63,442 bases of DNA, filler included, from Octopus bimaculoides (GCF_001194135.2; 11 parts of 10 records of this genome joined end to end with filler, not necessarily neighbours in it); one strand, 5' to 3'. Positions 29,951 to 59,628 are shown, counted from the whole stretch's first letter. Made by a program: numbers and translations. The notes: generated from the letters alone by a model not told the origin.

Positions 29951-29992
29951 GTACAACACACGCTTCGACCTGTTCTGGGTCTCTTCAAGTAC
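29951..29992 (-). ncRNA. Decayed type-I hammerhead ribozyme motif in a PLE-like terminal fragment
   Basis: RC: GUAC uUGAAGA GACC cagaaca GGUC GAAgC gugu GUU GUAC, then ccAAUAAA. Stems I and II are intact; two core substitutions. Confidence 0.6.
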
Positions 29993-30184
29993 ATCAATAA
30001 AAAACCTCGGAGGTTTCTTGAGTCGGCTTATGTACCGCTATATCGTCAGTTAATAAAAATACATATATATATATTTCATATAAGAGTGTATGGATTTTTA
30101 CACGGAGAGAAGACCCTTGACAGAACTTCTTGCATGCTAAAAATGGCAGTTAAACCCAAACCACGACAAACGGAATTCTCTCTC

Positions 30185-30540
30185 ATATATATATATGGTG
30201 GTTTCTACTCCTTATGCAGAGTTTCACCACTTCCTGTACCTACACCTTAGAACCATCATGGCATCTGATGTGGCTTTTTAAACCAGACAATGTTTTGAAA
30301 AGACACCCACATAGATTGCATATCCGATTTGGGCCACCAAGAGCTGCAGGTTAGTTCTGATCTTTGTGGATCTTAAAATGTCTTTTGAGGCCTCCGTTAG
30401 ATTTGCAAACCATCTGACATACATTACTTTCAAAGGTGTGCACAGACATATTGGCAGAATAGTTGGTGGAGGTTCATTTTCCATAAGTTCGCAAATGAGA
30501 TTTGATCCCAGCAAAAGAAAGGCACGGTCTGTCACGTAAC
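30185..30540 (-). mobile_element. 5'-truncated RTE-type LINE 3' end encoding three degenerate C2H2 fingers
   Basis: One minus frame reads DRPCLSFAGIKSHLRTY…VCQMVCKSNGGLKRHFKIH…CNLCGCLFKTLSGLKSHIRCH*, followed by a short 3' UTR ending ccaccatatata. Two in-frame stops. Confidence 0.75.
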
Positions 30541-32573
30541 AGACTAATAGGCACTAGGGTGAATAAAAAAATTAATTAACCTTATGTATATACAGACATA
30601 CATTCAGGAAAGGAGAAAAGATAACAAGAAGAATAAGATAAAAATTTGATCGTGTAACTTTAGACACATGAATTTTTAAGTTATTAAAATAAAACAAAGA
30701 GAAACTTTTGCTCAAGGATATAGGGCAAGGCCTGGTGAGGCGGGGGGAATGCTAGCGTAGAGGAGTGTAAATCAATAGCTTTGCTATTTCTTAGTTCTCG
30801 AAAATTGGAACATGAACTAGAAGATGAATGATTACAGATACAACAACAAAACTTCCAATAAATGGTGTCTCAAATAATCATCATGTTCAAATATTACTAA
30901 TGTGATAGCTAGAGGAAATTATCTGCACTTGTTTGAATGTTAAATAGATTTAGTTCAGCGAGATCAAATTTGAAATGAAAATAAACATAATGTATGTGTT
31001 AAATATGTAATGAGTCGTTTTATTAGTGATTTTAATGTATGGAAACATGTATGTGTACATATACGTACGTATATTGCAGAATGACAGAGTGCTTACGTAA
31101 CATTTTCAGAATCATTATGCAATCATGTACTCATCTCATCAGTGTACCACAGTTCACTCTGCCCTTTTGCGTGTATATACATATTAGTAGGCGTAGGAGT
31201 GGCTGTGTGGTAAGTAGCTTGCTTACCNNNNNNNNNNNNNNNNNNNNNNNNNNNNNNNNNNNNNNNNNNNNNNNNNNNNNNNNNNNNNNNNNNNNNNNNN
31301 NNNNNNNNNNNNNNNNNNNNNNNNNNNNNNNNNNNNNNNNNNNNNNNNNNNNNNNNNNNNNNNNNNNNNNNNNNNNNNNNNNNNNNNNNNNNNNNNNNNN
31401 NNNNNNNNNNNNNNNNNNNNNNNNNNNNNNNNNNNNNNNNNNNNNNNNNNNNNNNNNNNNNNNNNNNNNNNNNNNNNNNNNNNNNNNNNNNNNNNNNNNN
31501 NNNNNNNNNNNNNNNNNNNNNNNNNNNNNNNNNNNNNNNNNNNNNNNNNNNNNNNNNNNNNNNNNNNNNNNNNNNNNNNNNNNNNNNNNNNNNNNNNNNN
31601 NNNNNNNNNNNNNNNNNNNNNNNNNNNNNNNNNNNNNNNNNNNNNNNNNNNNNNNNNNNNNNNNNNNNNNNNNNNNNNNNNNNNNNNNNNNNNNNNNNNN
31701 NNNNNNNNNNNNNNNNNNNNNNNNNNNNNNNNNNNNNNNNNNNNNNNNNNNNNNNNNNNNNNNNNNNNNNNNNNNNNNNNNNNNNNNNNNNNNNNNNNNN
31801 NNNNNNNNNNNNNNNNNNNNNNNNNNNNNNNNNNNNNNNNNNNNNNNNNNNNNNNNNNNNNNNNNNNNNNNNNNNNNNNNNNNNNNNNNNNNATATATAT
31901 ATATATATATATATATATATATATACATATATACACTTGCATATTATATACTATATTATATTATTTTATACTGTATATAATGTATATTATCCATATATAT
32001 ATATATGACGCTTAACTGAGAGGATGATAGGAAAAAACTTGGAAGCGCTGTGTCCTCGCTTTCAATTTCGTTTTCACAAGAGCTTTCAATAAAGGAAAAC
32101 AAAACATTGTGTTACAAAAGCAAACGCAATATAACTTCACAGGAAAGAAAAAATCACACAAGTTTGTTGTGTGAGCGTGTATAAGTATACATACATATAT
32201 GTGTTTGTGTGTTGAAGACGGTTAAGAAGGCCTGCTGTGCAGTCTCCATTTCATCGGTCGGCTGATTATGCAGACGAACTGTCCCGCCATGTTTAACAAG
32301 TAAGTCTCTCTACGCAATAAAAAAAAAATGATTGACGCAGACGACCTTATTAGCTCAATACTAAACGGACAAAGCTAACAAGCAAAATAACAGTAATTGC
32401 AACAACAAAAACCACGATGACGACGACGACAATAGTAATAAAAATAAATAATAATAATAATAATAATAATAATAATAATAATAATAATAATAATAATAAT
32501 AATAATAATAATAATGATGATGATGGGTATTTTGGGTTTCGTATATTTTACCCCCAGTGTCACTTTGATGGCC

Positions 32574-32690
32574 TGGAAGCGCAATGGCTCATTGGTTAGG
32601 GCAGCGGACTCGCGGTCATAGGATTGCGGTTTCGATTCCCAGGCCGGGCGTTGTGAGTGTTTATTGAGCGAAAACACCTAAAGCTTAACG
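32574..32690 (+). mobile_element. SINE family B/C head fragment
   Basis: ggaagcgcaatggctcattggttagggcagcggactcgcgg…gtttcgattcccagg…gagcgaaaacacctaaag. Confidence 0.85.
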
Positions 32691-32847
32691 GGGCTCCGTT
32701 AAGCTTTAGGTGGTGGTAGTAGTAGTGGTAGTGGTGGTAGTGGTGGTGGTGGAGGTGTATGTATAACATAAAATTTATGTACATATGTATGTTTATGCAC
32801 ATGTATACATACACATATATATATATGTCTGTATATGTATGCATATA

Positions 32848-58355: not shown

Positions 58356-58398
58356 AACACGTTTCGACTGATATACCCTCCAGCCTTCATCAGGTGAC
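58356..58398 (-). ncRNA. Hammerhead relic; cleavage triplet deleted
   Basis: RC: gucac CUGAUGA A GGCUG…CAGUC GAAAC GUGUU. It lacks 3 nt (GUU) relative to the sister copies. Confidence 0.7.
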
Positions 58399-58479
58399 TT
58401 GGGGAAATTTCGAACCTGGCTTCTCATTCCTAAGGTATTTTTCGATGTTATTATTATTATTATTATTATTATTATTATT

Positions 58480-59215
58480 ATTATTGAGTGAGAGAGCAGT
58501 GCATGCCATTAAAGTGACACTGGGGTTAAATATACGAAGCCCATTATACCCATCATGACTACCCGTCTGATAAGGGTACACCAGGCACGTGCATCACAGC
58601 CATATGTACGCGACATGGTGATCTCATATCAAGATAAACAGCGCATGACCTCGCAGGTGGGGCCCAGTTAGAATTTTCTTCAGGTCAAGTAGNNNNNNNN
58701 NNNNNNNNNNNNNNNNNNNNNNNNNNNNNNNNNNNNNNNNNNNNNNNNNNNNNNNNNNNNNNNNNNNNNNNNNNNNNNNNNNNNNNNNNNNNNNNNNNGT
58801 TTAAGGATGTTGAGCAAAACATCCATGTTTGCAAAGGTGAATTATTCAAACCCCAAAGAATTCCTCTCAACACATGGCTATGATGCTCCTCAACTACTTC
58901 TGCTCATGATCAGAGATGCACATGTCGTCAGCCACCAAGGGAGATGCTCAACTGGTTAAGGTCAAACAACTGACAAGCAAATCTGTGGTATTAAGCAGAA
59001 TATTTGCTGTAGCCCATCTTTTTATACCAAGACAAAACAATATACATGATAACACTTCGAATCAGTTAAGATCAGAAGCCATGAGAGCCACTGCCTGGTA
59101 CTGCATCCGGTCATTTGTTATTATTATTATTATTATTATTATTATCAAGGTCACTGCTTGGAATCAAACTTGGGGTTAGTAGCCCACACTCTTAACCACC
59201 ATGCCATATGCCCGT
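58480..59215 (-). mobile_element. tRNA-headed SINE (family G) with (AAT)n tail, nested in the PLE terminal repeat
   Basis: RC head ggcatatggcatggtggttaagagtgtgggctac; RC tail …ccccagtgtcactttaatggcatgcactgctctctcactc(aat)n. A related tail piece is at ~32520-32575. Confidence 0.65.
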
Positions 59216-59582
59216 GGGCAATTATGGAGTGAATTTTAGGGCTTATAAATTTAATATTCTCCTATCCTTCCTCAATACCGGTTACCATATGATACTCATA
59301 TCTGCACTCAGTCTGCTTAGAAGATTGCTGTGTCCTAGTATATGTGCTGTTTCTTTTCGTTTTCATATTTTCCAGTGGTGTTCTCTGTCTATTACTTTAA
59401 CTTAATCCCACAGGGGAGGTGGTCTCCATTTTTCCATTCATGATCAGTTATACCCAATTTATCAATATCTCCAAGTGTCACAGCTTTGCGATGTTCATCT
59501 ACCCTTATTTTGAGGGGACGGCATGTTTCACTCTATAATTGCCCAGCTTAGGAATGAGAACCCAGGTTCGAAATTTCCCCAA

Positions 59583-59628
59583 GACACCTGATGAAGGTTG
59601 GAGGGTATATCAGCCGAAACGTTGTGTT
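59583..59628 (+). ncRNA. Minimal type-I hammerhead (PLE terminal repeat), core intact
   Basis: GACAC CUGAUGA A GGUUG gaggguauau CAGCC GAAAC GUU GUGUU, with a G-U wobble in stem II. Confidence 0.87.

Follow-up and report, generated by a model that had tools for sequence, protein, structure and literature searches.

Background

Minimal hammerhead ribozymes are known from the pseudo-long terminal repeats (pseudo-LTRs) of Penelope-like elements (PLEs) in many animals (Cervera & de la Pena 2014, PMC4209133). A stretch of 63,442 nt from Octopus bimaculoides (filler included; hereafter the window), which is a pack of separate stretches with ten joints and 57,334 non-N bases, holds eight hammerhead motifs of five families (A to E), and these were followed through 2.34 Gb of genome in 145,327 contigs (label G000). 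Two families stand at the centre of this report: family A, a PLE whose end repeat joins a tRNA-derived head to a hammerhead, and family D, whose hammerhead core carries U instead of A at position 6 (A6U). Taken as a whole, the observations are best explained, with a probability of about two in three (0.68), if RNA polymerase III (Pol III) makes the short copies of family A and these behave like short interspersed elements (SINEs), and if the D clade keeps the hammerhead fold while cleavage is dispensable.

The PLEs described in PMC4209133 share with the octopus families the type I fold, a palindromic minimal stem III, and the presence of many families per genome. An extra base between positions 9 and 10.1 is common to those PLEs and to families A and D, and their copies are likewise mostly single and truncated, with opposite-strand pairs 100-700 bp apart. 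The tail and the inverted partners seen in family A have also been described (PMC8557442, PMC4209133). PMC4209133 names a U3-A8 core variant; a fixed A6U clade, a branched stem II of ~77 nt (as in family C) and a tRNA-derived head do not appear in its available text.

PAc, a Poseidon element of Anolis carolinensis (Frangieh et al. 2024, PMC11167929), resembles family A in that its open reading frame (ORF), which encodes reverse transcriptase (RT) followed at the C-terminus by a GIY-YIG endonuclease, starts at the hammerhead in the end repeat. PAc has two start sites of reverse transcription, which yield a tail of 30-40 nt, and family A probably shares them, as its two 3' ends match; both elements have a preference for ATT, and in both cases no RNA-seq ends were found at the hammerhead site. 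The available account of PAc describes no tRNA-like promoter, whereas family A has one upstream of the ATG together with a sharp 5' edge. Neptune and Nematis PLEs (Craig et al. 2021, PMC8557442) resemble the D clade in their CxxC linker before the endonuclease and their (TA)n target bias. The same work reports that the absence of canonical hammerheads is no bar to PLE spread; its available passages do not mention a clade whose hammerheads have a fixed A6U core.

Promoters derived from small RNAs are known from other repeats. In the Schistosoma elements Sm-alpha and Sj-alpha (PMC2770079, PMC6765202), which occur in many copies, a hammerhead comes after a Pol III promoter of tRNA origin, as it probably does in family A; however, Sm-alpha is non-coding and tandem and carries a canonical hammerhead, whereas family A is a coding PLE with a minimal hammerhead and an inverted layout. 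The TRIMp3 elements Cassandra, Helenus, and Ajax (Kojima 2024, PMC10886601) also bear a small-RNA-derived Pol III promoter in a terminal repeat, but they are non-autonomous LTR elements for which an autonomous partner sharing the repeat has been argued to be unlikely; in family A, the autonomous PLE itself carries the head. Non-LTR retrozymes (bioRxiv 10.64898/2026.07.22.740005) are non-autonomous, hammerhead-bearing derivatives of PLE end repeats and in this resemble family A; they are defined by tandem type I units, an arrangement found in one of 30 family A copies. The words "tRNA", "polymerase III", and "octopus" do not occur in that preprint.

The available part of an octopus repeat annotation (PMC13282606) makes no mention of ribozymes. 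In the literature searched, with Repbase and Dfam entries and some supplements outside its scope, no tRNA-headed PLE end repeat, octopus PLE hammerhead, or A6U clade was found. Hammerheads in PLE end repeats are in themselves an ordinary finding.

Family A, a coding PLE of probable Penelope/Poseidon type

Motifs 5 to 8 of the window, numbered by position, belong to family A and lie among the following features:

52494-52506 (+): left copy of a 13-bp target-site duplication
52587-52632 (-): motif 5, family A hammerhead; stem III palindrome broken by C15.2U
52662-52732 (-): short piece of the family A ORF N-terminus after a tail, i.e., a partial tandem
52817-52862 (+): motif 6, family A hammerhead, inverted; CUGUUGA, here A6U as a single-copy mutation
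52905-52917 (+): right copy of the 13-bp target-site duplication
58310-58434 (-): family A 3' end-repeat tail (short 3' end) with motif 7; ATG at 58426-58428
58356-58398 (-): motif 7, family A hammerhead; a deletion at the cleavage site/stem I gives GUG or a broken stem I
58490-59118 (no strand assigned): different dispersed repeat with an assembly gap, nested in the family A (AAT)n
59120-59145 (-): (AAT)n tract belonging to the family A end repeat; its second half at ~58448-58485
59149-59220 (-): tRNA-derived head (A box, B box; partly deleted here), with a 12-nt near-palindrome before the head
59243-59529 (-): broken GIY-YIG endonuclease C-terminus of the family A Penelope/Poseidon ORF; 85% DNA identity to an intact piece in locus L014
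59547-59710 (+): inverted family A tail (long 3' end) with motif 8
59583-59628 (+): motif 8, family A; the sole fully intact hammerhead of the eight; reads as first ORF codons

The 35-nt core of the family A hammerhead has 3,001 exact matches in the genome, compared with none for the reversed control. A majority ORF, built from 62 loci at a depth of at least 13 and 2,508 nt long, gives a frame of 836 aa with RT and, at the C-terminus, a GIY-YIG domain; at the single locus L220, one frame extends over ~830 aa and is interrupted by one stop close to its end. The RT region of L220 matches Pfam RVT_1 above the cutoff (E=1e-10), and the protein has 698 homologs at E<=1e-50, including an 836-aa Anolis protein with 37% identity over 95%. 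The GIY-YIG domain was recognised by its motif and by full-length homology, and two homologs carry PF01541; a Pfam scan of this endonuclease and of that at the family D sister locus described below gave no direct GIY-YIG match. The endonuclease search returned 4,830 first-look candidates, of which 150 were scored, at 83-100% identity. Its domain order and its resemblance to the Anolis protein place family A among the Penelope/Poseidon PLEs. A 918-aa frame at L133 was rejected because it proved to be an N gap, and the single weak match from a search of a viral collection was not used.

The end repeat follows the order ORF stop, ~30-37 nt, palindrome and tRNA-like head, (AAT)n, ATG, hammerhead, and a 30-nt tail. 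In tandem copies, the end repeat continues into the ~836-aa RT/GIY-YIG ORF, and the hammerhead sits within the first codons of that ORF. Family A copies have two alternative 3' ends ~30-40 nt apart, and inverted partners are frequent. The single head-to-tail tandem among 30 copies is L153, a scarcity that speaks against the retrozyme reading of the initial annotation.

A tRNA-derived head with a sharp 5' edge

The head lies directly 3' of the endonuclease in 25 of 30 endonuclease loci, and a hammerhead tail follows it in 23. A strict A-box plus B-box pattern is present in 12 of these 30 family A loci (the B box in 22), vs none of 46 control loci, namely those of 80 metagenome PLE loci with enough downstream DNA. 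Three of the four heads tried align to tRNA genes of the host with z of 5-8 relative to shuffles, and both boxes match the consensus in both family A subfamilies. At least ten tRNA-Ile(AAU)-like genes lie clustered at G000:C8:86.93-87.00 Mb (L324-L331).

The 5' edge was placed in 30 consecutive exact-core matches on contig C1, among which four pairs are partners of one insertion. Eleven of these copies are without the head and 19 reach it; 14 of the latter start between -17 and +8 of the tRNA +1 position and five inside the head, and none of the 19 extends upstream of the head into the ORF. The 5' ends of families B, C, and D, in turn, are ragged. On this layout, a Pol III start at the head is predicted for the short family A copies and is rather probable. 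These copies would behave like SINEs, yet the head belongs to the PLE itself: that of a separate SINE family would be missing from the autonomous partner, whereas here it follows the ORF in the 25 loci noted above.

Several observations weigh against a Pol III origin of the short copies, and some of them would suit a passive head, that is, a captured SINE or tRNA fragment carried by an element whose RNA is made by RNA polymerase II (Pol II) or by read-through, with the edge arising where RT stops or folds back at the palindrome and head. The edge falls on the 12-nt near-palindrome where inverted partners join, and the same junction is present in RNA reads; because of this coincidence, fold-back alone could make the edge. 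Solo copies without an inverted partner, however, also start at about -7 to +3 (L143, L159, L007, L009, L020, L023). The tRNA fold of the head is decayed, with 14.3 bits against Rfam tRNA where gathering requires 29, and its isotype is ambiguous (Thr, Ile, and Trp score alike), but A and B boxes that fit the consensus in both subfamilies are not what a passive fragment would lead one to expect. Copies that pass the head are numerous, as the 4,830 endonuclease candidates indicate, and both long copies with a head in the upstream repeat (L226, L229) run on into the end of the preceding ORF. Such numbers would agree with a passive head, yet a stop passed by none of 19 copies is hard to reconcile with thousands of ORF-bearing copies unless there are two classes of RNA. 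The passive head would also leave the depletion of T runs described below unexplained. It is therefore considered a rather unlikely account, and synthesis of the short copies by Pol III remains the preferred one.

Depletion of Pol III terminators in the ORF

Neither the 2,508-nt majority ORF nor its end repeat contains a run of four or more T (T4), whereas synonymous, codon, and base shuffles give expectations of 3.3, 3.4, and 4.2 (P 0.017, 0.020, and 0.011) and a lenient null gives 2.2 (P 0.045). At the level of single loci, the ratio of observed to expected T4 runs is 0.44 in the 15 family A loci, of 18, that have sufficient length and 1.08 in 73 of the 80 control loci; none of the 59 controls with an expectation of at least 2.5 is free of T4 runs. 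Two points count on the other side: five of these 59 controls reach a ratio of 0.44 or less, and because all family A copies share one ancestor, the depletion amounts to one observation. As the controls are single decayed copies rather than majorities, the depletion is suggestive only. Three of the control metagenome PLE ORFs (L268, L278, L231) have one T4 run against 5.7, 5.1, and 3.4 expected; L268 and L278 have no A or B box downstream, and L231 is without downstream DNA.

The depletion bears on a more far-reaching proposal, in which transcription by Pol III would begin in the upstream end repeat and span the entire coding element of 2.8 kb, and the product would serve as the RT template and perhaps as an uncapped mRNA. 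L226 and L229, both tandem copies, have the head ~100-150 nt upstream of the next ORF's ATG, as this would require, and in RNA viruses type I hammerheads further cap-independent translation (PMC13725137). A terminator-free majority ORF, unmatched among the 59 controls, points in the same direction, but with P values of only 0.01-0.045 from a single ancestral sequence, set against controls that are no majorities. Moreover, none of 30 N-terminal loci has a long copy starting at the upstream head, and a hammerhead cut would fall downstream of the ATG. A Pol III start for the whole element is accordingly thought unlikely. Equally doubtful is the fuller version, in which the Pol III promoter of family A would drive both a terminator-free 2.8-kb RNA and short SINE-like RNAs, while the D clade would have dropped A6 and kept the fold as a protein-binding signal.

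RNA reads and a possible mechanism

Raw reads of three RNA-seq runs from one study (~6% of each; ordinary paired-end cDNA libraries) cover families A and D in both orientations; those of family A do so equally and mostly run on into unrelated flanks, a pattern that a passive head with read-through transcription would also produce. No pile-up of read ends was found at the cleavage site or the head in those runs, whose libraries lose short RNAs and RNA ends and whose strandedness is not established. For these reasons, the RNA-seq data are evidence neither for nor against a Pol III start or cleavage. None of the listed holders of the sequences is on record as RNA.

If short family A copies are indeed Pol III products, their formation might proceed as follows. 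Pol III would start ~7 nt before the tRNA +1 position, its expected start place. The PLE protein would nick AT-rich DNA and start to reverse-transcribe from two positions of the tail, which has been shown for the anole element PAc. On reaching the 5' end of the RNA, the cDNA could fold back on the palindrome and give rise to head-to-head pairs, while long tandem or read-through transcripts would be the source of the longer, ragged, ORF-bearing copies. Cleavage by the hammerheads would require dimers or the help of protein.

A fixed A6U core in the family D clade

Family D is represented in the window by two overlapping features:

45845-46057 (-): 3' end of family D, a young PLE likely of Neptune type; terminates in (AT)n
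45929-45965 (-): motif 3, family D hammerhead; A6U core (CUGUUGA) throughout the family

Copies of family D are 98-99% identical; their 5' ends are ragged and their 3' end is fixed, with (AT)n at the latter in nearly all of 32 copies. When positions 6 and 7 were left free, the family D pattern gave 3,237 exact matches, and CUGUUGA was found in all of the 100 listed. With U6 fixed and loop II free, the matches rose to 8,297, and position 7 took all four bases; patterns with A, C, or G in place of U6 matched 1,379 times, and ~82 of the first 100 have A6 (counted by eye). The matches without U6 are mostly sister families with other loops, and no other base reaches 5% at position 6 of family D in the RNA reads. 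CUGUUGA is thus fixed across family D and is not the result of decay, and among the hammerhead clades sampled in the genome the U6 clade is the most abundant.

To compare the two states, 46 U6 copies and 19 A6 copies were hand-picked from the match lists so as to span subfamilies. U16.1 is present in all 46 U6 copies, and position 17 is A in 16, C in 15, U in 15, and G in none; loop II varies. At stem I pair 4, 38 of the 46 U6 copies have C-G, and among the 19 A6 copies seven have G-C and five A-U; compensatory differences at this pair are found between D-like sister families. In an A6 sister of family D with the loop UCC (L362-L365, G000:C1), the cleavage triplet is GUG in three of four copies, which breaks the NUH rule, and stem I pair 4 is A-U. 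The U6 and GUG states, with stems kept, suggest that the fold persists from one family to another despite two breaks in the catalytic consensus.

A sister copy (74% identity) in locus L047 is preceded, at a distance of ~600 nt, by a GIY-YIG ORF that carries a CxxC linker, and this ORF is 49% identical to an RT-bearing protein. No RT was found upstream at this Neptune-like locus, and there was no Pfam match. The ORF and its linker make it likely that the D clade is a Neptune/Nematis-type PLE; a point on the other side is that the ORF link of family D comes from this one sister locus. A second hammerhead copy is present in one of 32 family D loci. At L184 (G000:C1:6432119-6435145), two D-like hammerheads of different subfamilies stand in direct tandem ~250 nt apart with (AT)n between them, which reads as one subfamily inserted at the end of another.

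It is somewhat probable that cleavage is dispensable in the D clade while the fold is kept, and weak or no cleavage is predicted from the U6 core. Alternatively, the U6 hammerhead may still cleave adequately, whether dimeric or assisted by its own protein, and selection may continue to act on cleavage. The preserved stems would fit this, as would position 17, which is never G in the 46 U6 copies although all three permitted bases are used; since these copies represent only three or four independent subfamily states, this evidence is weak. A natural A6C hammerhead variant retains low activity, below 0.1 per minute (PMC3088659; the term "A6U" does not occur in its available text), and the PAc hammerhead is protein-assisted; however, PAc hammerhead mutants still insert in vitro (PMC11167929), and an A6 sister family carries GUG in three of four copies. 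Continued cleavage is thus possible, though the less probable of the two, and a dispensable cut with a retained fold is favoured.

Motifs, insertions, and density in the window

The remaining motifs of the window belong to families B, C, and E:

29951-29992 (-): motif 1, family B minimal type-I hammerhead; C3U and A15.1G; AAUAAA at 29943-29948
42690-42793 (+): motif 2, family C; exact core, stem II with a branched insert of ~77 nt and mismatched near its base; AAUAAA at 42796-42801
48493-48553 (+): motif 4, family E; exact core, GUC site, stem III of 3 bp capped by a tetraloop, stem II weak and mismatched near its base

A strict type-I descriptor matches the window twice (motifs 5 and 8), and allowing one core mismatch adds motifs 3 and 6, making four; 40 local dinucleotide shuffles gave means of 0 and 0.125, respectively. 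A relaxed exact-core descriptor found three matches vs a mean of 0.017 in 300 shuffles. The motifs thus exceed chance expectation. In the self-complementary stem III, 4 of 4 positions pair in family A, 8 of 8 in B, 8 of 8 in C, 4 of 4 in D, and 8 of 10 in E. No Rfam hammerhead family reached the gathering score: the whole-window scan gave only microsatellite noise in the 150 listed of its 199 rows, motif 4 scored 13.7 bits against Hammerhead_1 (RF00163; gathering 34), and local scans of motifs 8 and 3 gave no hammerhead match. The repeat finder and ORF list for the window were likewise dominated by microsatellites and N runs.

All eight motifs of the initial annotation were recovered at their positions, as were the AAUAAA signals downstream of motifs 1 and 2, the five unrelated architectures, the self-complementary stem III of minimal type-I hammerheads, and the link between one family (A) and a PLE GIY-YIG ORF at 59243-59529 (-). 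Its view that several lineages have seeded the genome agrees with the thousands of copies counted. The CUGANGA...GAAA...NUH core it described applies to families (to A, and to the majorities of B and C) but not to all eight copies, seven of which depart from the canonical core or stems; given these departures and RNA reads without a sign of cleavage, the label of self-cleaving RNA is not supported for most copies. It overlooked the tRNA-derived head of family A, the position of the hammerhead within the first ORF codons, and the family-wide CUGUUGA of family D.

Eight motifs in 30 kb had suggested that active self-cleaving RNAs of PLE or retrozyme origin are densely clustered in this region. 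The 13-bp target-site duplication encloses motifs 5 and 6 as a single inverted insertion, and motifs 7 and 8 read, from their layout, as one insertion with a foreign repeat nested inside, so that there are six insertions of five families. (One part of that nested repeat matches window positions 32520-32575.) These insertions lie on five unrelated stretches of the pack, from contigs C97777 (motif 1), C8 (motif 2), C12 (motif 3), C135163 (motif 4), and C2 (motifs 5 to 8), and hence do not form a cluster. Judged by ten incidental matches in the flanks of loci fetched for other families, the background is about one family A-D insertion per 44 kb; five were seen in the window vs 1.3 expected, with a nominal P of 0.01 that is inflated because the families were chosen from the same window. 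Although this excess and the at least 12,677 exact matches in the genome for family A and D-like motifs alone would be in line with a cluster of active ribozymes, the separate contigs already refute the clustering itself, and with seven of eight copies off the canonical motif and tandems as scarce as in family A, such an account is very improbable. Genome-wide hammerhead density is high; a local cluster is absent.

Families B, C, and E

Families B (441 first-look candidates) and C (883, with inverted head-to-head partners) are older repeats whose majorities have AAUAAA, an intact core, and a stem III that is self-complementary. Seven of 25 rows of family B and ten of 25 rows of family C (where two pairs of rows overlap) preserve both halves of the core, and copies within each family differ by decay only. 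At 25 loci of family B, 25 of C, and two of E, no RT/GIY-YIG ORF was found within 1.5 kb, which weighs against a common PLE interpretation; because of this, a PLE origin of B and C is proposed from layout, their inverted partners and ragged 5' ends being consistent with PLEs.

Stem II of family C contains a three-way branched insert of ~77 nt, too long for the usual descriptors. Its fold has -28.7 kcal/mol in the majority, but per-copy z-scores range from -3.4 to +1.2, and RNAalifold on the insert (L056-L080) found almost no structure and no consensus fold; given these results, stem II of family C was dropped as a conserved fold. For family E, one other similar place was found, with G12A.

Further CUGAUGA motifs occur in repeated contexts at 45549-45560 and 45677-45688 (+), at 43888 and 44028 (+), and at 38593 (-), without a matching set of GAAA and stems; these may be more decayed hammerhead families. 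The flanks of L150 and L078 hold two more hammerheads that pass the descriptor, are unrelated to families A-E, and have a CGCG-type stem III, which suggests that there are more families in the genome. Elsewhere in the window, broken fragments of a reverse transcriptase like that of long interspersed elements (LINEs) lie at 16120-17778 (-). Broken frames at 40386-40712 (-), unmatched by the ORF-link queries used, look PLE-protein-like by eye, with a resemblance to the Naiad type.

Implications

Autonomous retrotransposons are taken to use Pol II. If the reading of family A is true, a coding PLE with a tRNA-type promoter would be a missing link between PLEs and tRNA-headed hammerhead SINEs, and family A would be the PLE counterpart of Cassandra and Helenus. 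On the fuller version above, in which the same promoter also drives the 2.8-kb RNA, one element would be both LINE and SINE and would show the birth of Sm-alpha-type hammerhead SINEs from a PLE end repeat.

The role of the PLE hammerhead is unsettled in the field. The larger U6 clade escapes standard Rfam and CUGANGA-based searches, and the A6, U6, and GUG-site sister families, all successful in one genome, constitute a natural experiment on whether these elements need cleavage or the fold alone.

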